In this document: positions 2,546 through 47,559 of the stretch, piece after piece | Position numbering within the stretch: position 1 is the first letter of the stretch | How the letters are laid out: each line of letters begins with the position of its first letter | DNA from: a virus | Lineage: Duplodnaviria > Heunggongvirae > Uroviricota > Caudoviricetes | Strand: one strand, 5' to 3' | Virus record (IMG/VR): IMGVR_UViG_3300048593_000385 | Length of the DNA stretch: 64,000 bases | The notes under the pieces: generated by a model | Seen by the model: only the letters and a program-made list of their open reading frames with translations | What the model was told of the DNA's origin: nothing | The model's database searches: none | Made by a program: the position numbers and the translations under genes

Positions 2546-4116
2546 AGCAATCCTCTTAATACATTTGAAACAGTTCCTACTACCCCATTATCAGGGACAT
2601 TGGGGAACAAGCTTCCTGGATCATTTTCTTCTTGATAATTATCTTGCTTAGACTTATTGTCTGTCGGCTTGGTCTTGGTTGAAGCAGCTTCAGGAGTAGA
2701 CTCAACCTTCTTGCCAAACGAATTCTTATACACATCCCATTTCGCCTGATATGTAGTCTGTGTCAGAATGTGGTTAATTGTGGCAACCAGATAATACCCA
2801 GTAAGATATGGATTCAGTGCGCTAGGGTCTTGTGGATTACCAGCTGGCATAGTAATGAAAACAACATCCCCAGCATTAATCTTTGGGTTGCCGTATACAT
2901 CAAGCGTAAACATATTCTGAGCTAATCGAGTGAAGTATGATGCTCTGGCTGGATAGATTTGATCCATAAACGAATCTTGGTTAGTCGATGATAGATCCTT
3001 GGGAATGAAGAAGAATCGACTGTATTTGACTTCTTTATCATCCTTAGAAGTAACACTGTTCATGAACGTGATGCTGTTTTCAGGATAAGATTGCTCTTTC
3101 TCGTTGCCCAGAGTCAGTGACTTGTTGTTTGTTTTGTCACCATTATCCAGAAAACGGAATCTTGATGGTATAGCCTTCTGATTGATATAATCGTAAACAA
3201 TAACATCAGATTCAAACATACCACGCTTTAGTTTCGCAACAGTATCAAAAAAGCTCTTTTGTTGCATCTTCAGAATAGTGTTAGTTTCTCTTGGATTAAT
3301 TGCTTCTTTCTGAGTGCCAATAAGAGGATTCTCAAACACATATTTGAATGGGTGTGGCTTGTTGTCAGTAGAAGGAAGACCTCCTGCTGATTTAATCTTT
3401 TCCATTCCCTTCTTGATCAGATACTCAACATCGCAGAAATTGAATCCTTTGAAGTTCTCGAAGAACAGATATGTTGCTGACACAAACTCATCAGAGCTGG
3501 AGATAGATCTTCTGGCAAGAAACTGACACGCTTGAAGGGGTGTGAGTCTAGGAATAACTACGTTTTGTAGACCTTTGGTTTCTTGCTTTTTGTTGAGAGT
3601 TTTAACTCTTTTGCCCTTGAATGGATTGTTTGCTTTGTCGATTAACAGATAATCTTTTGTTAGATCATCGATGTTATCGCTATGTGCTCTGTTATAGCTT
3701 TTCATAACAACACTTGTTGCGTCGATTAAATGCTCTTCGCTACAGAAGTTAAGAGTGTATTCTTTCAGTGTGTTGTTCTGTGCGTAATTGATATTCTCGA
3801 TAGCATATACAGCAAAACGCAGACTAACTTCAGCCAGATTACCATCTGCTGTTTCTGTAGCATAATCAATCTCAAGAAACTCTTCGCCGATAATAGGAAA
3901 GCTCGTGTCCTTTGCATTGGAAATATTCGCGAGACCACCCAATAGGTCTACAGCGTCTTTGATTCGTAATGCACCATAAAGTGTGTTCTTGAATATATCC
4001 TCAGTGATGGAGATATTTAACACTAGATTTGAAATGTTACGCTCTCTGGTGCCATCCGCATTCTTGAGGATGACTTTAAATTTCTTTAAACCACCAGGAA
4101 TATATGTCTCAGTCAT
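2542..4116 (-). CDS. Baseplate structural protein (wedge component, unassigned)
   Basis: 524-aa ORF between the gp53-like and gp5-like genes in a late-promoter-driven baseplate operon. No specific motif recognised. Confidence 0.35.
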   Translation of the reverse strand: MTETYIPGGLKKFKVILKNADGTRERNISNLVLNISITEDIFKNTLYGALRIKDAVDLLGGLANISNAKDTSFPIIGEEFLEIDYATETADGNLAEVSLRFAVYAIENINYAQNNTLKEYTLNFCSEEHLIDATSVVMKSYNRAHSDNIDDLTKDYLLIDKANNPFKGKRVKTLNKKQETKGLQNVVIPRLTPLQACQFLARRSISSSDEFVSATYLFFENFKGFNFCDVEYLIKKGMEKIKSAGGLPSTDNKPHPFKYVFENPLIGTQKEAINPRETNTILKMQQKSFFDTVAKLKRGMFESDVIVYDYINQKAIPSRFRFLDNGDKTNNKSLTLGNEKEQSYPENSITFMNSVTSKDDKEVKYSRFFFIPKDLSSTNQDSFMDQIYPARASYFTRLAQNMFTLDVYGNPKINAGDVVFITMPAGNPQDPSALNPYLTGYYLVATINHILTQTTYQAKWDVYKNSFGKKVESTPEAASTKTKPTDNKSKQDNYQEENDPGSLFPNVPDNGVVGTVSNVLRGLL

Positions 4117-11467: not shown

Positions 11468-12427
11468 TTAGTCTTCTTCGGCCAAACGCTTGAAGAAGGC
11501 CATATCGTCATCCTCATCAGTAGAGGTTTCGGCAGCTGGAGCAGTCCAAGGCAGGTCTTCATCTTCCTCGACCTTAGTCTCGAAGGCTGGCTTTGCAGTC
11601 TTACCTACTGGAGCTTCCTCGCGACCATAATGACGATTGTCGTCACGATTGATGTGAGTGTTCAGATCAAGAACTTCGTTCAGACGCTTTTCGAGGTCGG
11701 CAAACGACTTGAAGTTAGCAGCATCAAGGAACGGCTGTAGCTTATGTTCCTTCTGCCAGATTGCTTCGAGCGCATCATCATCCTCAAGAAGTGGCTTAGA
11801 ATCACCGAAGGAAGACTTGTCGTAGTTACGATAGCCATCAACCTGACGGATACGAAGATAGAAGTCAGCACCAGACCACATATCGAATGGATTGACTGGC
11901 TTGATTTCTTCAATACCATCATCCATTGGATGCATAAGTTCGTTCAGCTTTTCAAAGATCTTCTTGCCGAAGTCATAGAGGAAAACCTTACCGTTGTTAT
12001 CAGGATTAGCAGGATCCTTGACAACATAGATATTTGCGGCATAGTGAAGGCGACGCTTCTGCTTACGAGCCTGCTTGCGCTGAGGAGAGTCATCATTATC
12101 TGATTCCTTCCAGAGCTTGCTGTTATATTCAGCAACAGGATCCTTTTCGCCGAGGCTGGTCAACGACTTCTCGATATACCACTTTCCACTTGGACCTTGG
12201 AAACCATGATCCCAGTAACGAACAAACGGAACATCCTCGCCCTCGGGAGCAGGAAGAAAGCGAATAATCGCCGAACCATTACCAGCCTTATCGACTGTTG
12301 GCTTCCAGAATTGTTCGTTGTTTTTATCGGAATTTTCGCCGCCACCAGCGGACATCTTGCTAACCTGTTCGGTTAACTTACGGAGAGAATCCTGACTCGA
12401 ATTCTTCAGAGATGCAAAATTTGACAT
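11468..12427 (-). CDS. 32: Single-stranded DNA-binding protein gp32
   Basis: 319 aa. GNGSAIIRFLPAPEGEDVPFVRYWDHGFQGPSGKWYIEKSLTSLGE aligns with T4 gp32 [44 protein letters not shown]. Acidic C-terminal tail as in gp32. Confidence 0.9.
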   Translation of the reverse strand: MSNFASLKNSSQDSLRKLTEQVSKMSAGGGENSDKNNEQFWKPTVDKAGNGSAIIRFLPAPEGEDVPFVRYWDHGFQGPSGKWYIEKSLTSLGEKDPVAEYNSKLWKESDNDDSPQRKQARKQKRRLHYAANIYVVKDPANPDNNGKVFLYDFGKKIFEKLNELMHPMDDGIEEIKPVNPFDMWSGADFYLRIRQVDGYRNYDKSSFGDSKPLLEDDDALEAIWQKEHKLQPFLDAANFKSFADLEKRLNEVLDLNTHINRDDNRHYGREEAPVGKTAKPAFETKVEEDEDLPWTAPAAETSTDEDDDMAFFKRLAEED

Positions 12428-13101: not shown

Positions 13102-13329
13102 TTAAATTGGTAGCATTGCACTTTTAGGAAGATAGTGTAGACTCTCTGCTTCGAGTTGAAGTTTTGCTTTAAGCATATCGTTGGTTTTAATTGCCTTGGC
13201 AAATATTTCCACCTCCACATTATTCTCTTCGCAGTAATAGATGATTGCATCCATATACGAGAGATCGTGTTTCCACACGAGTTCTTCAATTGTTTCGCAA
13301 ATTACTTTCATTCGAGTCATTGAGTTCAT
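13102..13329 (-). CDS. Hypothetical protein (possibly gp33-like late transcription accessory)
   Basis: 75-aa ORF in the position that 33/59 occupy next to gene 32 in T4. No motif confirmation. Confidence 0.3.
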   Translation of the reverse strand: MNSMTRMKVICETIEELVWKHDLSYMDAIIYYCEENNVEVEIFAKAIKTNDMLKAKLQLEAESLHYLPKSAMLPI

Positions 13330-13332
13330 AAT

Positions 13333-13965
13333 TTAGCCTTCTCTATAAAAAATATGTGCACCAATTCGTGTGACTCTTTCTAGATTCCAACGTGGATTTA
13401 CATAGTTCGCATGATAGAATTTAGCTCCCCCTGTAATGTCCCCGTAATTGCCAAGATATACTTGTTCAGCAATTTTCTTTGATTCGACAAATTGCTCACG
13501 GCTACGAATTTTCTTCTGACCTTCACATTTCCAAGAAAATTGACATGTTCTTTTGTTTCTTTGTGAAACAACTGCACATGCTGTCTTTCCGAAACGACCT
13601 TTAGGATCATTTACTCTATTCATAACTACATTGTTGACGGCAATCTTGCCTTTGGTTGATTGGTTACCAGCCTCGAAATATGTGTTTTCGGCGAGGCACT
13701 GGATCTGTTTTTGATCATTATGATCCAGTTTTACAGGAACTTTCACGATTGTTGGCTTTTCAACAATCTTGATCACGGGAACCTTTTGGATCACCGGAAC
13801 TTCTACAGTAATTGCTTTGGCAGGAGCTAGTGCAGATATAGTTAGAATGGCAACCATTCCCATGCAAAAACCTGAGCCATATGTTAGATTTGGGTAATCA
13901 ATTCTCTGTTCGAATAATTTATCAATATTAAATTTTGATGTGAGATTTTTGAAGAAATTCTTCAT
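13333..13965 (-). CDS. SleB-family cell wall hydrolase with N-terminal signal-anchor (candidate endolysin)
   Basis: 210 aa. An N-terminal TM segment is followed by NTYFEAGNQSTKGKIAVNNVVMNRVNDPKGRFGKTACAVVSQ ... FYHANYVNPRW ... IGAHIFY, matching the Hydrolase_2 (SleB) family signature. Confidence 0.7.
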   Translation of the reverse strand: MKNFFKNLTSKFNIDKLFEQRIDYPNLTYGSGFCMGMVAILTISALAPAKAITVEVPVIQKVPVIKIVEKPTIVKVPVKLDHNDQKQIQCLAENTYFEAGNQSTKGKIAVNNVVMNRVNDPKGRFGKTACAVVSQRNKRTCQFSWKCEGQKKIRSREQFVESKKIAEQVYLGNYGDITGGAKFYHANYVNPRWNLERVTRIGAHIFYREG

Positions 13966-14397
13966 TTGTATCCTCTTTAGTTTAATGAGTCGGCGACTGT
14001 TCCGTGTATAACATACAAGAACAATACCGCTACGAGAAGATACAATAATAAAGAAAGTCGAGGTATCTTCTAATCCATTTCCCTCTTACTGGAAATGCGA
14101 ATCATTATGGTTTGGTCGGTAGTAGGCGAGCCTACTGCTTTCTGTGCCCTAAAGACTGAAGCTGTGTAAGAGTCAATGGAGGAAGACCCCCAGAGGTAAC
14201 ATTTTATTTAGGTCTCGAGTTTACCCCAAAACCTTCGGTCTGCCGCTATAAACCTTCGGTTAGACTTAGATGGACACACGTTGCGCAACTCAGTCGATCT
14301 GTCGTGACATTACATCCTGTGCAATGTGGTTGAAAGACTGTGTGTCCATCTAAGTGGCGGGATTCTGTTGCAAGGTTCCCGCCAGACCCCAATTTAA

Positions 14398-14604
14398 TTA
14401 ATTGCCATCAACGAAAGATTTGAGAAGTTGTGCTTCAGCAATAATGTCATCTGTGGCAGGATAAGCAACTTCTGGAAGAGGCGTATTGTGCAACCTAGAA
14501 TTCTCATAGGCAGCATTCATACTCGCATGGAATTTTTCTGAGGCTCTTTGTTGAGCTAGTTTGATCATGTCCATACGGAGCAAGAAAGGTGTATCATTAG
14601 ACAT
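14398..14604 (-). CDS. Hypothetical protein
   Basis: 68-aa ORF immediately downstream of the tmRNA coding piece. Confidence 0.35.
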   Translation of the reverse strand: MSNDTPFLLRMDMIKLAQQRASEKFHASMNAAYENSRLHNTPLPEVAYPATDDIIAEAQLLKSFVDGN

Positions 14605-14619
14605 AGTTATTTTCCTTAT

Positions 14620-14799
14620 GTGTGTAGTGTGTATTTGAGCCCGTTCTGTTTCGAGGTGGAACTCATACCCAATGCTAGCTGTTAGGCAGCTAGAGCAAAG
14701 GCAACGTCATTGTCGTTTGCATTTACAGTTTGTGGCACTTTGCCAGTCAATCAGTCTCGGACGCCCTATTACACGAAAATCGATATCCAGGTCACCCCC
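14620..14799 (-). ncRNA. ssrA: tmRNA (ssrA) coding piece of a permuted two-piece tmRNA; tag reading frame 14682-14720 encodes ANDNDVAFALAA
   Basis: The minus strand reads GGGGGUGACCUGGAUAUCGAUUUUCG (cf. E. coli GGGGCUGAUUCUGGAUUCGACGGG), then ..GCAAACGACAAUGACGUUGCCUUUGCUCUAGCUGCCUAA, a classic A-N-D...ALAA tag plus UAA. The 3' boundary is approximate. Confidence 0.7.
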
Positions 14800-14949
14800 A
14801 TCATAGACAAAGCACCAACTTGAAGTAACATCCAAGGTCATGACTCCTATCCAGTTACTCGTCCCCAAACATTATCTCCCTTGAGGCAAGCCATGCGGTC
14901 GGCCAGTTCCTATATTACGTACGCTGTATAGTCCCTGTTGCTTTATCTA

Positions 14950-15030
14950 TGGTGGAGGTGAGGGGAGTCGAACCCCTGTCTTTCCGCTTTTACTGTTGCC
15001 TGTCAGCAACTGATATTTTATTTAGGTATT
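14950..15030 (-). ncRNA. ssrA: tmRNA acceptor piece (T-arm + 3' acceptor strand + CCA), located upstream of the coding piece (permuted gene order)
   Basis: The minus strand reads ..GACAGGGGUUCGACUCCCCUCACCUCCACCA. The 3' acceptor strand CACCUCC pairs (one G-U) with the GGGGGUG 5' end at 14799. No matching 5' acceptor strand exists adjacent to it, so it is not a stand-alone tRNA. The 5' boundary is approximate and overlaps the 3' end of the 14990-15313 ORF. Confidence 0.6.
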
Positions 15031-15313
15031 TTACCTTCTCTTTGATCCAGTTATCAAACGGAAGGTGCATACCAGTGGAACCATTCCAGTCGGCGAATGC
15101 ATCATCATAAAAGCCAATCTTGGACTTTTTCACCTGCAGTTCGGTCAACTCGTCAGCCCACTGTTGCCACTTTTCGTCAGTGATAACTGGATCATCAAGC
15201 ACATAATACCGATACGAATGTACCAGCATTTGTGTCCGACGCTGTTTGATTTTCTCATCCAGCGTCTGGACTTCATTCACCAGATCCGCCTCGAAAAACG
15301 AATCTAGGCTCAT
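14990..15313 (-). CDS. Small protein resembling the NAD-dependent DNA ligase (LigA) N-terminal Ia domain
   Basis: 107 aa. QRRTQMLVHSYRYYVLDDPVITDEKWQQWADELTELQ resembles the LigA Ia pattern [29 protein letters not shown]. No adenylation domain follows. Confidence 0.4.
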   Translation of the reverse strand: MSLDSFFEADLVNEVQTLDEKIKQRRTQMLVHSYRYYVLDDPVITDEKWQQWADELTELQVKKSKIGFYDDAFADWNGSTGMHLPFDNWIKEKVKYLNKISVADRQQ

Positions 15314-26337: not shown

Positions 26338-26354
26338 TAGTCCTCCATCATCTT

Positions 26355-26543
26355 TTATTTAGTAGTTTTGCGCCATTGAAACCCAAAACAAAGTTCTTGC
26401 ATTTTACGATGAAACCAGTTAGGTTCCATTCCTTTTCGAGCTCGGTATACGACAGCGCCATATTGACTCTTGCCATAATCACCCATTAACCAGCAAGACC
26501 AGTCAGAATATTCTGGCTCCAAATTGATTCTCATGTTTTCCAT
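26355..26543 (-). CDS. Hypothetical small protein (probable true start at the internal MENMRINLEPEY)
   Basis: The N-terminal 50 aa of the 112-aa track ORF look non-protein-like. The C-terminal 62 aa look genuine, and they overlap the stop of the upstream ORF by about 10 nt in another frame. Confidence 0.3.
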   Translation of the reverse strand: MENMRINLEPEYSDWSCWLMGDYGKSQYGAVVYRARKGMEPNWFHRKMQELCFGFQWRKTTK

Positions 26544-28329: not shown

Positions 28330-30411
28330 TTATTTTGAGGTTGCGCGATAAACACCATCCCAATTTTTAGGAGCAGCTTTGGCTTCGTTCATACGATCGA
28401 GCATGGCTTCGTAGTAGCCTTTGAGTTCTCCATTCCACAATGGACCCATTTCATATGCCATGGCCATGGCTCTGCCCCAATCACCTGAGCGATATGCATC
28501 CAGGAATCTGTTGTGAGCAATTTCAGCCTTTTCGTTCTTTTCTTCAAGAACTGTATAGATTCGAGCTGGTTCAGTTTTGCCTTTAACAGCAATCAAATCA
28601 AGTTCAATTACTTGGTATACATCCCTAACCAGTTCGGCAGTTTGTGGTCCGACGATGAGTTTGACCCCATAAGGTTTGGTTTGACCTTCGAGGCGAGCAG
28701 CCAAATTAACCCCATCACCCAAGCAAGTGTAATCAAAACGCTGGTCGCTGCCCATATTACCAACAACCACAGTGGCAGTGTTAATACCAAGACCCATACC
28801 GAAAGCTGGAATGCCTTCCCCTTTAATTTCGCCATTAAATATCTCCAGGTCTTTTAGCATCTGGAAAGCAGTGCGCACCGAATCCAAAGCATGTTGAGGG
28901 TTATCTACTGGTGCATTCCAGAAAGCCATCTGTGCGTCACCAATATACTTATCAAGTGTTCCTTTGTTTTCCAGAATAGCTCTTGTCATCACAGTCATAT
29001 ATCTATTCATTATGGAAGTAAGACCTTCAACGTCTTCGCCATAGTGTTCGGAAATAGTAGTGAAGCCACGAACATCAGTAAACATAATCGACAACTGTTG
29101 TTTTGTTCCACCTAGCTTGAGTAACTCTGGCTGTTTCTGCAGCTGAGCAACCAAGTCTGGCGACAGATACGTGCCAAACTGTTTCTTAATCTGTTGCTTT
29201 TGTAGGAATTCGCTGATAAACTTGGCAGTATATAGATGTATATATACAAACAGTGCAGCAGCAATATTGAACGACACATCAAAAAGGATGTGTTCTTTGG
29301 TAAATAAATAGAATGGTAGATACAGATATCCGCCCATGATCACGGCGATATATATAATTGAATAGCGGAAACGAGAAACAACAATCAATGACAGGCAAAC
29401 AAAAACAAATGCACCAAGATCAGCAAGTTGCCCCCACAGAGGAATCGCAACCGAATCACCATTTATCAGAGTCTGAAGAATTGACGCTTGCAACTGATGG
29501 GGATACTGCGCACCTTGTGGAGTCGCTACAGGATTCGCGATACCAGCGGCAGTTACGCCAAGTATCACAATTTTACCTGTCAGATCAGGCAAAGCCTTGT
29601 CACCAATTTCGAATGACGCAAATTTATAGTTCGGATTGACGAACACTCGACCATATTCATCAGTTTTAATTGTTTCGAAGGAAGGAATTCGTAATGCCTC
29701 AACTCCCGTCTGATTTATCTTCGCTTGATATGACGGATCTCCAGCAGCTACACGCAGCATCTCTAGAGCAAATGCGGGATAGTATTCGCCAGATGATTGT
29801 GCTAGAAGAGGAACTCGCCGTACGACCCCGTCTGCCTCAGGTAATGTTGATGTTATCCCAACACCGACAGCGGCTTCTTGCAGAGGTGCAATATTACTTA
29901 GAACGCATGGATATTGAGGAAGAAATTCAGTTGGTTCTCCATCGCCGATTACGGCAACGCCTGTCTTCCGAATTGTCGCACTTGCCTGAGGTGAACCTCG
30001 GCCAGTGGTCGATCCAGCAATACAGTCAGCGGAAACAGTCTGACTGAGTACAACTGGATATTCGCTTAGAGCATTCGCAAGAACTCTATCAGTCCCCAAG
30101 CGGTCAGGCTCAGGCATAAGTATAGTGCTGCCAACAGCGCCAGCCCCTCTGCTGTATATATCGCCAATGATTTTAGCATGGACTTCCCTCGGGAAAGGCC
30201 ACTGACCATATTTTTCAATTGATTTCTCCCCTAAATTAGCGACTACAATCTGCTCAGATTGCTTTGGTGTATCCAGCATGATGTAGTCATAAAATTTAAG
30301 GCGAGACGCTTCAACCAAAAATGGATCTTGTAGCTTTACTACAAGCAGTAGCGCAAATGTGATCAGTACCAACCACGGAGACAATAAAATTTTAATCGCT
30401 TTGTTTGACAT
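28330..30411 (-). CDS. Membrane-bound class III adenylate cyclase with periplasmic CHASE2 sensor domain
   Basis: 693 aa. N-terminal TM, then about 300 aa extracytoplasmic CHASE2-like domain, 3-4 TM helices, then the cyclase homology domain (FTDVRGFTTISE ... DKYIGDAQMAFWNAP ... GINTATVVVGNMG ... DYTCLGDGVNLAARLE). The Lys before YIGD indicates ATP specificity. Confidence 0.85.
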   Translation of the reverse strand: MSNKAIKILLSPWLVLITFALLLVVKLQDPFLVEASRLKFYDYIMLDTPKQSEQIVVANLGEKSIEKYGQWPFPREVHAKIIGDIYSRGAGAVGSTILMPEPDRLGTDRVLANALSEYPVVLSQTVSADCIAGSTTGRGSPQASATIRKTGVAVIGDGEPTEFLPQYPCVLSNIAPLQEAAVGVGITSTLPEADGVVRRVPLLAQSSGEYYPAFALEMLRVAAGDPSYQAKINQTGVEALRIPSFETIKTDEYGRVFVNPNYKFASFEIGDKALPDLTGKIVILGVTAAGIANPVATPQGAQYPHQLQASILQTLINGDSVAIPLWGQLADLGAFVFVCLSLIVVSRFRYSIIYIAVIMGGYLYLPFYLFTKEHILFDVSFNIAAALFVYIHLYTAKFISEFLQKQQIKKQFGTYLSPDLVAQLQKQPELLKLGGTKQQLSIMFTDVRGFTTISEHYGEDVEGLTSIMNRYMTVMTRAILENKGTLDKYIGDAQMAFWNAPVDNPQHALDSVRTAFQMLKDLEIFNGEIKGEGIPAFGMGLGINTATVVVGNMGSDQRFDYTCLGDGVNLAARLEGQTKPYGVKLIVGPQTAELVRDVYQVIELDLIAVKGKTEPARIYTVLEEKNEKAEIAHNRFLDAYRSGDWGRAMAMAYEMGPLWNGELKGYYEAMLDRMNEAKAAPKNWDGVYRATSK

Positions 30412-33976: not shown

Positions 33977-34168
33977 GCATCTATTTATAATAAAAGCGAA
34001 GTGGGAGGATTTAGGTATACCTCCAAGGTCCAGTCAATTACTATCTGTAATCTCGACCCACGACTCGTTAGCTGGTTAAGCAGGAGACCAATCCCCGAGT
34101 CTACTTTATCCCCACTGACGAGGGGATTATTCAGTCACACTTCTTACTAGACCCGTCGGTCCAGATAT

Positions 34169-41398: not shown

Positions 41399-41551
41399 GG
41401 TTTTATTTAGGAGAAAATCACGATTTTTGCCAAACCTTTTTCAACTTCCTTCTTGCGAGCAGCCTGACTCTTGGACACTTGTTTGTGTCTCATACTCATT
41501 CCACCTGCCCATTCGTAGCGCTCGAGCAAGACTCCATTGATATCCATATAC

Positions 41552-45097: not shown

Positions 45098-45295
45098 TTA
45101 CCAATCCTTAGCTTCGAGCCATTCTATTTCGTGGAACGCAACAACACGTCTCAAAGTTTCACCAGTAGAGGTGTCTTCGAGGACCAAATGCGTAGCGGAA
45201 CTTTTTGGGTTTGGTCTGGAATATTCAACAACAGCCCAAACCTTATTTAGATCATCCCAGCTATCATTATTGATTTTTATGTATCTCATACTCAT
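45098..45295 (-). CDS. Hypothetical small protein between nrdA and nrdB
   Basis: 65-aa ORF tightly packed between the two RNR genes. Confidence 0.4.
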   Translation of the reverse strand: MSMRYIKINNDSWDDLNKVWAVVEYSRPNPKSSATHLVLEDTSTGETLRRVVAFHEIEWLEAKDW

Positions 45296-47559
45296 ATTTT
45301 ACAACTTTCACAATCTTCATCATCCATATCGCCAGCAGCAAGTGACTTATCTTCAATCTCACCAGCACCATCATTGGTGTTCAAATAGTATAGAGTTTTC
45401 CCGCCATACTTATAGTGCATCAAAAGGTGGCCAATCATTTCTGACATTGGGATCTTACCATCTTCATAGTGAGCAGGATTGTAGGAAGTGTTGACAGAGA
45501 TAGCCTGATCAATAAACTTCTGCAATACAGCCATAATCTTCAGATATCCTTCTGGCGATTTCTGATCCCAAAGCAATTCATACTTGTTTTTCAGAGTACG
45601 AATACCAGGAACAACCTGCTTGAGAACACCATCCTTAGACTGCTTGATCGAAACCAGAGCACGAGGAGGCTCAATACCATTGGTCGAGTTAGAGATCTGA
45701 GCTGAAGTTTCGGCTGGCATCAACGCCATCAGAGTTGAGTTACGGATACCAGATGCCAACGCCCGACTTGATAATATGCTCCAAGGCATCTTGTAGTCTG
45801 GTGCAACTAGCTCGTCCACCTCTTTCTTGTATGTATCGATTGGCATATACCCGTGACCATACTTGGTTTCATGATCGAGGGGGCATGCCCCTACTTCTTC
45901 AGCCAAGTCGACGGAGGCTTTAATGAGATAGTAACTCCATGCTTCAGCATACTCATGTACCAACTCAAGGTTTGGATTAGAATAATTACTGTCATTACGA
46001 GCCAGCCAATAAGCAAAATTAATGATGCCAATACCAAGAGGGCGACGATTCCGAGTACCAATAGCAGCGGCTCTAACAGGATAGTCCTGATAATCCAGTA
46101 AGGCATCCAAAGCACGTACTGCAAGGGTGCATGGCTTTTCGAAATCTGCTGGCTTTTTAATCTTTCCCCAATTGATTGCAGCAAGTGTGCAAAGGCTAAT
46201 TTCGCCTGATTCATCGTGAATATCCTTTAGCGGTGTAGTCGGTAGCGTGATCTCACAGCAGAGATTGCTCATCTTAATCGGAGCAGCCTGTGTAAACGAA
46301 CCATGGTCATTGACATGATCAACATTCATCAGATAGATTCGTCCAGTGTCTTTTCGCTCTTGCATAAAAGATGAGAAGAGATCAATCGCAGGGATGGTTT
46401 TCTTTCTGATTTTGGTTGAACGCTCATACTTTTCGTAGAGTTCTCGGAACTTATCAACGTCTGAAAAGAACTCTGCGTAGAGATCTGGGCAATCATGAGG
46501 CGAGAACAGGGTGATATTACCTCCAGACAGAAGTCTCTCATACATCACCTTGTTAAACTGGACACCATAATCAAGATGGCGGATGCGGTTATCTTCCGTT
46601 CCCTTGTTGTTCTTCAAAACAAGAAGATCTTCCACCTCATAATGCCAGATCGGGTAATAGACAGTCGCTGCTCCACCACGAACGCCACCTTGTGAACAAG
46701 ATTTAACAGCAGATTGAAAATGCTTCCAAAAAGGAATAACACCAGTATGGCTAGCATCGCCGTTGCGTATAGGAGATCCAACAGCCCTAATAGAACCGCC
46801 GCCAATACCAATTCCGGCTTTCTGAGAGACGTACTTAACAATCGCAGAAGAAGTCGCATTTATGGAATCCAGACTGTCATCTGTTTCGATAAGTACGCAC
46901 GAACTAAACTGGCGTTGAGGTGAGCGGACTCCTGCCATAATAGGAGTAGGCAGACTAATATCAAAAGTACTGATTGCATCATATAATTCCTTTACCCATT
47001 TAATTCTATCCGTCTTATAATTTTGAAAGAGTGTCATAGCAATCAACATGAATGCCATCTGAGGAGTTTCGTAGAACTTGTTTGTCACACGGTTACGAAT
47101 CAGATACTTGCCACGGAATTGTTCCATAGCAGCATAAGTCAGTAGGTTGTCGCGCTCATGGTCGATGTAACGATTGAGTTCGTCCCACTCACCACTTGTA
47201 TAAGATAATCCCAATTCTGGATCATAATATCCTTGAGTCATCACTTTAAGGTAATGTTCGTTCAACCAATCAGGCTCATACCGACCATAGACTTCTTTGC
47301 GAAGATGGTAGTTGATTAGACGACCAGCGACATACTGATAGTTTGGATGTTCTTCATCAATCAGATCAGCAGCTGCTTTGATCAGAGTTTCTTGAATGTC
47401 AGTTGACTTGATGCCATTGTAGAACTGGATATGCGTTTTAATTTCAAGATCAGAAACAGAAACTCCAGTCAAACCTTCGCATGCATAATTTGTAACTTTG
47501 TGGAATTTCTCGATATTCAATGGCTCTTTGGTACCATCACGTTTCGTCACTTGAATCAT
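45292..47559 (-). CDS. nrdA: Ribonucleotide reductase class Ia alpha subunit NrdA
   Basis: 755 aa with an N-terminal ATP-cone and conserved catalytic motifs including the C-terminal CESC pair. Confidence 0.95.
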   Translation of the reverse strand: MIQVTKRDGTKEPLNIEKFHKVTNYACEGLTGVSVSDLEIKTHIQFYNGIKSTDIQETLIKAAADLIDEEHPNYQYVAGRLINYHLRKEVYGRYEPDWLNEHYLKVMTQGYYDPELGLSYTSGEWDELNRYIDHERDNLLTYAAMEQFRGKYLIRNRVTNKFYETPQMAFMLIAMTLFQNYKTDRIKWVKELYDAISTFDISLPTPIMAGVRSPQRQFSSCVLIETDDSLDSINATSSAIVKYVSQKAGIGIGGGSIRAVGSPIRNGDASHTGVIPFWKHFQSAVKSCSQGGVRGGAATVYYPIWHYEVEDLLVLKNNKGTEDNRIRHLDYGVQFNKVMYERLLSGGNITLFSPHDCPDLYAEFFSDVDKFRELYEKYERSTKIRKKTIPAIDLFSSFMQERKDTGRIYLMNVDHVNDHGSFTQAAPIKMSNLCCEITLPTTPLKDIHDESGEISLCTLAAINWGKIKKPADFEKPCTLAVRALDALLDYQDYPVRAAAIGTRNRRPLGIGIINFAYWLARNDSNYSNPNLELVHEYAEAWSYYLIKASVDLAEEVGACPLDHETKYGHGYMPIDTYKKEVDELVAPDYKMPWSILSSRALASGIRNSTLMALMPAETSAQISNSTNGIEPPRALVSIKQSKDGVLKQVVPGIRTLKNKYELLWDQKSPEGYLKIMAVLQKFIDQAISVNTSYNPAHYEDGKIPMSEMIGHLLMHYKYGGKTLYYLNTNDGAGEIEDKSLAAGDMDDEDCESCKI

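Follow-up and report, generated by a model that had tools for sequence, protein, structure and literature searches.

The 64,000-nt viral DNA of IMG/VR record IMGVR_UViG_3300048593_000385 (Caudoviricetes), called the window below, carries a circularly permuted gene for transfer-messenger RNA (tmRNA, encoded by ssrA) on the minus strand at 14637-15012. The gene was recognized by reading the sequence, by ARAGORN and by Rfam models. In the direction of transcription, the acceptor piece comes first, followed by a 150-nt intervening segment and then by the coding piece. The boundaries used here are about 15012 for the 5' end of the acceptor piece, which was inferred from the promoter register, and about 14637 for the end of the 3' stem-loop. 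An original prediction made from the sequence alone had placed a two-piece tmRNA at 14620-15030, which is essentially right. The parts of the gene are as follows.

14950-15012, minus strand: acceptor piece, with 5' hairpin, P2 strand, T-arm, acceptor 3' strand and encoded ACCA (from ARAGORN and Rfam)
15010-14995, minus strand: 5' hairpin of the acceptor piece (from base changes in relatives)
14987-14981, minus strand: P2 strand of the acceptor piece, GCGGAAA (from covariation)
14977-14961, minus strand: T-arm, AGGGG-UUCGACU-CCCCU (from the sequence)
14960-14954, minus strand: acceptor 3' strand, CACCUCC (from the sequence)
14953-14950, minus strand: encoded ACCA (from the sequence)
14800-14949, minus strand: intervening segment of 150 nt, with an 11-bp basal stem UAGAUAAAGCA/UGCUUUGUCUA and then UGAU directly before G1
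14637-14799, minus strand: coding piece, in which G1 of GGGGGUGACCUGGAUAUCGAUUUUCG is 14799 (from ARAGORN and Rfam)
14799-14793, minus strand: acceptor 5' strand, GGGGGUG (from the sequence)
14783-14780, minus strand: UCGA in the coding piece
14779-14773, minus strand: P2 strand of the coding piece, UUUUCGU (from covariation)
14720-14685, minus strand: tag open reading frame (ORF), with its UAA stop at 14684-14682 (from ARAGORN)
14693-14675, minus strand: 7-bp hairpin of the coding piece with the stop codon in its loop
14664-14637, minus strand: 3'-terminal stem-loop with the conserved loop CACCUCGAAACAGAAC (from covariation and RF01849)

The coding piece begins with the canonical tmRNA 5' end GGGGGUGACCUGGAUAUCGAUUUUCG at 14799, as had been claimed. 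Its GGGGGUG pairs with CACCUCC of the acceptor piece to form a perfect 7-bp acceptor stem (P1), which includes the pair G3-U70. This pair is the alanine identity element. The T-arm, acceptor strand and CCA had been predicted about 150 nt upstream of the coding piece, and the gap between the CCA end at 14950 and G1 at 14799 is exactly 150 nt. A resume codon and a tag ORF ending in ALAA-UAA were also found where expected, with the resume codon GCA at 14720-14718 and the stop at 14684-14682. The frame GCA AAC GAC AAU GAC GUU GCC UUU GCU CUA GCU GCC UAA encodes ANDNDVAFALAA followed by the stop.

ARAGORN in its permuted mode reported a 'tmRNA*' at 14591-15045 on the minus strand with the tag ANDNDVAFALAA, and Infernal agreed with two Rfam models. 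The model of permuted tmRNAs (RF04321 tmRNA_permuted) was matched over its full length (model positions 1-213) and gave 91.6 bits (gathering score 47; E 2e-16); the alpha model (RF01849 alpha_tmRNA) was passed marginally, with 54.2 bits against 50. The covariance-model match of the gene is far above chance. In the window, the outer P2 segments of RF04321 were flagged as non-canonical, and the local 5' hairpin of RF01849 fits better. Neither a one-piece tmRNA nor an ordinary tRNA at the T-arm and CCA, both raised in the original prediction as ways in which it could fail, was found. The standard tmRNA model RF00023 gave no match even at a permissive E-value threshold, and none of the 23 tRNAs called in the window by ARAGORN and the Rfam tRNA models overlaps 14950-15012. 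The only GGG-initial strand complementary to CACCUCC lies 150 nt downstream.

The exact 26-nt 5' end of the coding piece occurs in 20 IMG/VR contigs, and all 20 carry a permuted tmRNA. When viral contigs were scanned more broadly, with the T-arm and CCA fixed and the acceptor stem left free, at least 120 contigs matched; among the matches listed, ARAGORN called 57 further permuted and 29 standard tmRNA genes. The permuted gene order is kept in all relatives. Base pairs were counted in fixed-register constructs from 55 distinct viral sequences, for which P2 had not been used in selection. The P2 helix GCGGAAA/UUUUCGU (columns 8-14 versus 57-63 of alignment A1) has changed on both sides at each of its 7 pairs; 91.9% of the cells are paired, and its score was reached by 0 of 500 shuffles. 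The pairing proposed originally for P2 was correct within one base. The whole structure was 97% paired, versus 72% in the shuffles (0/500) and about 52% in slid registers. P1 and the T-stem were 100% paired, a value partly enforced by the search pattern and by the pairing-based selection. Outside these helices, the acceptor-piece 5' hairpin shows a compensatory change from U-A to C-G in the relative L142 and wobble-compatible changes in L002. The 3' stem-loop of the coding piece (14664-14637) covaries within the close clade, and its conserved loop CCUCGAAACAGAA agrees with the RF01849 consensus ACCuGGCAACAGAA.

The tags of the relatives, such as ANDNVAFALAA, ANDNNVAFALAA, ANDNVAFAGYALAA and ANDNNAYEGLALAA, differ from each other in the middle, but in all relatives they stay in frame, begin with ANDN and end in ALAA before a stop codon. 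The alanine codons of the tag vary at third positions, for example GCU CUA GCU GCC, GCG CUA GCC GCA and GCU CUA GCA GCA. The synonymous variation of the tag, together with the covarying helices, indicates that selection acts on the gene at two levels, that of the RNA and that of the translated tag.

When 185,579 species genomes were scanned for the acceptor pattern specific to this clade, no bacterial donor or cellular counterpart was found. Only two short contigs of metagenome-assembled genomes (MAGs) were hit, a 592-bp phage-like fragment and the Acholeplasmataceae MAG contig DUOG01000037.1 (L143). At about 3390-3472 of the latter, a TTGACA...TATTAT promoter precedes an RNA of about 85 nt that consists of a tmRNA-like tRNA-like domain (GGGGGUGAAUGG ... 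CACCUCCACCA) without the tag region, which recalls the domain-only gene of mycobacteriophage DS6A (PMC4131195). By megablast and blastn, the deposited phages contained no close relative of the locus or of the surrounding 14 kb, and gave only tRNA-level matches and an 88-nt match in Sinorhizobium phage Phosso.

In relatives whose mature pieces are nearly identical, the intervening segment is 3, 5, 53, 57, 65, 67, 70, 83, 101, 121, 122, 129, 134 or 150 nt long, and the interiors have no detectable similarity to each other. In all 13 relatives with a segment of 50 nt or more, its opening 11 nt form a stem with the 11 nt before the conserved UGAU. This basal stem shows changes on both sides at 11 of 11 pairs, 96.5% of the cells are paired, and 0 of 500 shuffles reach its score. 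Several of its U-G pairs are strand-specific, and the opposite strand would not pair. The fold of the whole 150-nt segment is unexceptional (z = -1.6), so that the support is limited to the basal stem. The same stem and the same UGAU are present in the OM43 (Methylophilales) phage Melnitz. The sequences thus predict a precursor in the form of one long hairpin, with P1, the ACCA opposite UGAU, and the basal stem. Permuted tmRNA genes mature through tRNA-type processing, as described in PMC11915505 and by Keiler, Shapiro and Williams (2000, as cited in PMC9004378). By analogy, the tRNA-maturation enzymes would remove the intervening segment in this phage as well, which fits the precursor hairpin.

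The intervening segments of L075 and Melnitz (L145) start with a ribosome-binding site and ATG, and their ORFs (58 and 54 aa) continue into the coding piece, as does, in the same frame, an ORF of 44-53 aa at 14707-14868 of the window. The ORF of L075 is rich in cysteine and has no Pfam match. A meaning for these ORFs was considered and rejected. The conserved GGGGGUGA of the window stops one other frame at once (UGA), and the third frame through this region stops ten codons in, a frame reading that covers the window alone. The shared frame is probably fortuitous, with GGGGGUGA closing the other frames.

The surroundings of the tmRNA gene and the other genes used to place the phage are listed below.

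15015-15025, minus strand: promoter-like motif CTAAATAAAAT, directly upstream of the acceptor piece (predicted)
14990-15313, minus strand: 107-aa ORF, a stand-alone DNA-ligase N-terminal Ia-like domain (PF22745, E 3.6e-25)
14398-14604, minus strand: 68-aa ORF between the tmRNA 3' stem-loop and a second stem-loop copy
14355-14384, minus strand: displaced second copy of the tmRNA 3' stem-loop, UGGCGGGA-ACCUUGCAACAGAA-UCCCGCCA (from sequence comparison)
13333-13965: cell-wall hydrolase
13102-13329: gp33 late-transcription coactivator
11468-12427: gp32
45292-47559: NrdA
28330-30411, minus strand: 693-aa protein with an adenylate/guanylate-cyclase-type domain (phrog_35576)

The window also encodes tail proteins and 23 tRNA genes. 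With gp32, gp33, NrdA, the tail proteins and the tRNA genes around it, the tmRNA is encoded by a phage, as originally stated, and the gene content identifies the window as that of a T4-like myovirus. The order at the locus is tmRNA (14637-15012), small ORF, hydrolase, gp33 and gp32. The gp33 protein is orthologous to that of Melnitz (40% identity, E 2e-12). Among 50,697 deposited phages, full-length or near-full-length homologs of the 693-aa cyclase-domain protein were found only in Melnitz and HTVC008M (about 40% identity), and two Acinetobacter phage records matched it partially (28% coverage, 28% identity). These matches place the phage near the Melnitz/HTVC008M group, and judged by its proteins it is a distant relative of Melnitz and of the SAR11 (Pelagibacter) phage HTVC008M. 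Elsewhere in the window, a manA RNA motif (RF01745) lies at 33994-34163 on the minus strand, at the downstream edge of the tRNA array (66.1 bits versus 55.2).

On the upstream side, CTAAATAAAAT stands in the register of TATAAATA/TATATA (-10 or T4-late type) in the relatives. Exact copies are found at 15015-15025 and 14201-14211, and copies with one mismatch at 41400-41410, before the tRNA array, and at 26352-26362, before an ORF, all on the minus strand. The motif CTAAATAAAA(T) is over-represented in the window (8 matches with at most one mismatch versus 2.0 expected), and it is located directly upstream of the tmRNA, of a structured leader RNA described below, of the tRNA that opens the 21-tRNA array and of one ORF. 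Comparison with the late motif of T4, TATAAATA, makes a late-type promoter plausible. A sigma-70-like site, TTGATA-18-TAAAAT, is located at 15057-15028. The relatives L002, L003, L006 and L018, as well as Melnitz, have TTGACA/TTGACT-N17-TATAAA/TATATA ahead of the acceptor piece. The window, L011 and L012 have the end of the 107-aa ORF in place of the -35 region, whereas the other relatives have a promoter there. The last codons and the stop (14992-14990) of this ORF overlap the 5' hairpin of the acceptor piece. The ORF consists only of the PF22745 domain, which is NAD+-binding, and the ORF at the equivalent position of Melnitz is unrelated to it.

On the downstream side, the 68-aa ORF has no Pfam match, and a protein scan of viral contigs found no relative. 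At the corresponding position, L012 carries an ORF with a homologous N-terminus, and L011 carries none and has a single stem-loop. The window and L012 each have two copies of the 3' stem-loop. The window's second copy coincides with a weak RF01849 match at 14353-14430 (24.8 bits), and that of L012 is preceded by a decayed copy of an L011-type tag-coding sequence. The displaced stem-loop therefore looks like the remnant of an L011-like tmRNA 3' end. The simplest reading of these sequences is that an L011-like gene acquired, by recombination, DNA with a replacement 3' end and a small ORF, which displaced its old end. This suggests cassette insertion or unequal recombination at the tmRNA 3' end. 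Elements integrating into ssrA leave the same displaced-end pattern (PMC4383910), and no integrase was identified near the displaced stem-loop. Between the displaced stem-loop and the conserved spacer, an insertion of about 88 nt at 14266-14353 has perfect inverted repeats of 14 bp at its ends, TTAGATGGACACAC ... GTGTGTCCATCTAA. L011 and L012 do not have it, and no other full copy of it was found within the window.

Further downstream, at 14022-14195 on the minus strand, lies a non-coding element of about 175 nt that is both conserved and structured. It has no Rfam match at E up to 1, and besides the window it occurs in L011, L012, L045, L068 and L112 and at over 100 other loci of IMG/VR; its 21-mer TTCCAGTAAGAGGGAAATGGA alone occurs in at least 119 viral contigs. 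A homolog of the cell-wall hydrolase (44-76% amino acid identity) follows within about 120 nt at 113 of 113 loci, and gp33 comes next after the hydrolase at 101 of them. In the relatives, TATAAATA precedes the element at a fixed distance, and the window has CTAAATAAAAT there (14201-14211). One hairpin of the element has 6 covarying pairs and tolerates large loop insertions. In the long-range helices CCAUU/AAUGG and CUCUUAC/GUAAGAG, the changes are limited to A to G on the free strand. The element is probably the cis-regulatory 5' leader of the hydrolase-gp33 late operon, and it is a candidate for a new RNA family. Its position is that of the glutamine riboswitch in Melnitz.

The gene at 14637-15012 is very likely a complete, selectively maintained, permuted ssrA of a T4-like myovirus that functions in ribosome rescue. 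This interpretation is directly supported by the anatomy of the gene, its family membership, the selection at RNA and tag level, the phage context and the synteny with Melnitz. Expression, processing, charging, tagging and the benefit for the phage can be proposed from the family, and the steps below follow the two-piece paradigm of Caulobacter. Transcription of a single precursor would start at the CTAAATA/-10-like element about 5 nt before the acceptor hairpin or reach the gene from the upstream ORF by read-through. In the long precursor hairpin, the basal stem of 11 bp would continue the acceptor stem beyond the ACCA/UGAU region. Host RNase P would then cut 5' of G1 (14799), trimming would proceed from the 3' side to the CCA (14950), and the 150-nt segment would be discarded. 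The two pieces would be held together by the 7-bp acceptor stem and the 7-bp P2. Host alanyl-tRNA synthetase (AlaRS) would charge the tRNA-like domain with alanine, for which G3-U70, the canonical T-arm and ACCA are in place, and host SmpB and EF-Tu would deliver the tmRNA to ribosomes stalled on broken mRNAs. Translation would resume on GCA and append (A)ANDNDVAFALAA, and the ALAA end would direct the product to host ClpXP-type proteolysis. The likely benefit for the phage is that ribosomes would be kept available and truncated proteins recycled while host transcription and mRNAs are destroyed.

Several observations weigh against this interpretation. No SmpB was found in the 64-kb window, which is a partial genome and was searched by tblastn with a weak probe; function would therefore depend on SmpB of the host. 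The window is without the strong TTGACA -35 element of the relatives, and only the -10/late-like part remains. A search for the pseudoknot PK1 in closely related clade sequences (RNAalifold and a brute-force helix scan) gave only candidates of 3-4 bp that vary little, among them a UGGC/GCCA hairpin at 14747-14734, and no pseudoknot could be assigned in the alignment of the close clade. A free-energy cofold of both pieces yields P1, the T-arm and the hairpins, but not P2. The P2 helix is accepted here because it is supported by covariation, and not because of the free-energy fold. In addition, the exact variant with an intervening segment of 150 nt has so far been seen only once, and a 35-mer from the window's own segment is absent from IMG/VR.

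Another interpretation, which we consider unlikely, is that the gene belongs to a phage-specific two-piece tmRNA lineage, defined by a canonical T-arm and an alpha-like mRNA domain, which doubles as a recombination platform and could serve in counter-defence. As a platform, the gene may exchange unrelated inserts of 3 to 150 nt or more between the conserved strands of the basal stem. On its 3' side, ORF cassettes may enter at the stem-loop together with a replacement end and leave displaced fragments behind. In counter-defence, it could rescue ribosomes stalled by RNA-cleaving abortive-infection systems of the host.

A distinctly improbable interpretation is that the RNA acts as a decoy or saboteur, which titrates host SmpB, AlaRS or EF-Tu or competes with the host tmRNA and so inhibits or redirects trans-translation. 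In a variant, host proteins would receive a tag chosen by the phage to alter their fate. The domain-only RNA of mycobacteriophage DS6A is reported to inhibit endogenous tmRNA (PMC4131195, PMC11915505), and Buchholz et al. suggest selective tagging for amino-acid recycling (PMC9004378). The tRNA-like-domain-only gene of L143, with its own promoter, would agree with a decoy, as would the variable middle of the clade's tags, which shows that the tag is free to evolve. However, a pure decoy needs no tag, and the frame, ANDN, ALAA and stop are all kept through synonymous change. The structural selection on the mRNA-like part and on the 3' stem-loop is also the signature of a translated tag.

It is highly improbable that the phage carries the gene only passively, as the remnant of an attachment (att) site, that is to say a host ssrA acquired through imprecise excision or recombination and now neutral or decaying. 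tmRNA genes are favoured integration sites, and ssrA fragments are found in prophages (PMC9004378, PMC4383910). A remnant of this kind is a partial and displaced gene; the fragment at 14355-14384 has this form, but the main gene is complete, and more than 25 viral contigs have kept it. P1, P2, the 3' stem-loop and the precursor stem show compensatory changes, which, like the synonymous variation of the tag, are inconsistent with decay. Furthermore, the phage is T4-like, the searches made found no integrase, the locus is conserved with Melnitz, and the genome scan for the clade-specific acceptor pattern found no bacterial donor. Finally, the T-arm and CCA resemble a tRNA T-arm in a generic way and nothing further, and the idea that they are part of an ordinary tRNA, or that a one-piece tmRNA has its 3' end elsewhere, has practically no probability left, being refuted by the ARAGORN and Rfam results at 14950-15012, by the position of the sole complementary strand and by the permuted order in all relatives.

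The gene adds a well-documented example and, through the contig scans, a sizeable environmental clade to the known but little-studied two-piece tmRNAs of phages, and it shows selection on such genes at the level of both the RNA and the tag. Segments of 3-150 nt around identical mature pieces are a natural test set for the requirements of the processing enzymes. The gene by itself raises no new question, and the side findings, chiefly the leader RNA, may exceed the tmRNA in interest. Phage two-piece tmRNAs have already been published, at the same locus in related phages, and the window adds a well-supported further example. Buchholz et al. (2022, PMC9004378) described the two-piece, alpha-type ssrA of Melnitz and surveyed 18,146 phage genomes, which contained 133 unique tmRNAs; 53 were two-piece, and 50 of these 53 came from aquatic phages. 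The tmRNA database of 2025 counts 79 phage tmRNAs (PMC11915505).

The ssrA of Melnitz (gene 86), together with that of related pelagimyophage-like contigs, is the nearest published system (PMC9004378). Both phages are T4-like aquatic myophages, and both genes are permuted. The annotated tmRNA of Melnitz is followed directly by gp33 and later by gp32, and the order in the window is the same. The intervening segments are of similar length (142 nt in Melnitz versus 150 nt), each with the basal stem and with UGAU before G1, and the two genes share the ANDN...ALAA tag and an AACAGAA loop in the 3' stem-loop. In contrast, identity between the mature parts is only about 63-66%. The T-arm of Melnitz, GGGGGCAGUACCC, is of the alpha type, and its RF01849 score is 106.7 bits, whereas the window has the canonical T-loop UUCGACU and scores 54.2 bits. 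The promoter of Melnitz is TTGACA-17-TATAAAT, of which the window has the -10/late-like part only. A glutamine riboswitch (RF01739, 52.8 bits) follows right after the tmRNA in Melnitz, whereas no match to it was found at 13900-14700 of the window at E up to 1. The window has at this position the small inserted ORF, the displaced stem-loop copy and a different structured leader.

The gene was also compared with the alpha tmRNA of the Caulobacter crescentus type (RF01849). In both, the gene is permuted and the pieces are joined by P1 and P2, the tag is of the ANDN type and ends in AA, the acceptor piece has a 5' hairpin, and the 3' loop ACCuNGNAACAGAA is conserved. The alpha tmRNA gene is chromosomal, whereas that of the window is carried by a phage. 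The T-loop of the RF01849 consensus is GGCgGUA (the alpha type GGCNGUA in Melnitz and Phosso), in contrast to UUCGACU in the window. The P2b and P2c positions of RF01849 align to gaps, and the long three-segment P2 is missing. The canonical T-loop and the missing P2 extension explain the marginal alpha score of the window (54 bits versus 107-108 bits for Melnitz and Phosso). The original prediction also held that the tmRNA constrains the host lineage. This part stands only weakly: the alpha model is barely passed, the T-arm is canonical and the alpha P2 extension is missing. Melnitz itself has an alpha-type tmRNA, although its host is not an alphaproteobacterium (PMC9004378). Because the alpha assignment is marginal, the gene is mosaic and the tmRNA of Melnitz disagrees with the lineage of its own host, the inference to a host is weak, and host taxonomy should not be read from the type of a phage tmRNA.

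Phosso (L001, PV764938), the Sinorhizobium phage mentioned above, carries an unannotated permuted tmRNA at about 349.5-350.2 kb (RF04321 113 bits, RF01849 108 bits), with the tag ANDNVSTKVALAA and an intervening segment of 410 nt. The gene is of the alpha type, and its 3' stem-loop is nearly identical to that of the window; the length of the insert probably explains why ARAGORN misses it. Unlike the window, Phosso has an alpha-type T-arm and is a 469-kb jumbo phage of a soil rhizobium. The one-piece tmRNAs of cluster C mycobacteriophages (Bxz1) and of Bacillus phage G likewise occur in large lytic phages rich in tRNAs, but in contrast to the gene of the window they have the standard gene order, and the hosts are unrelated (PMC4131195).

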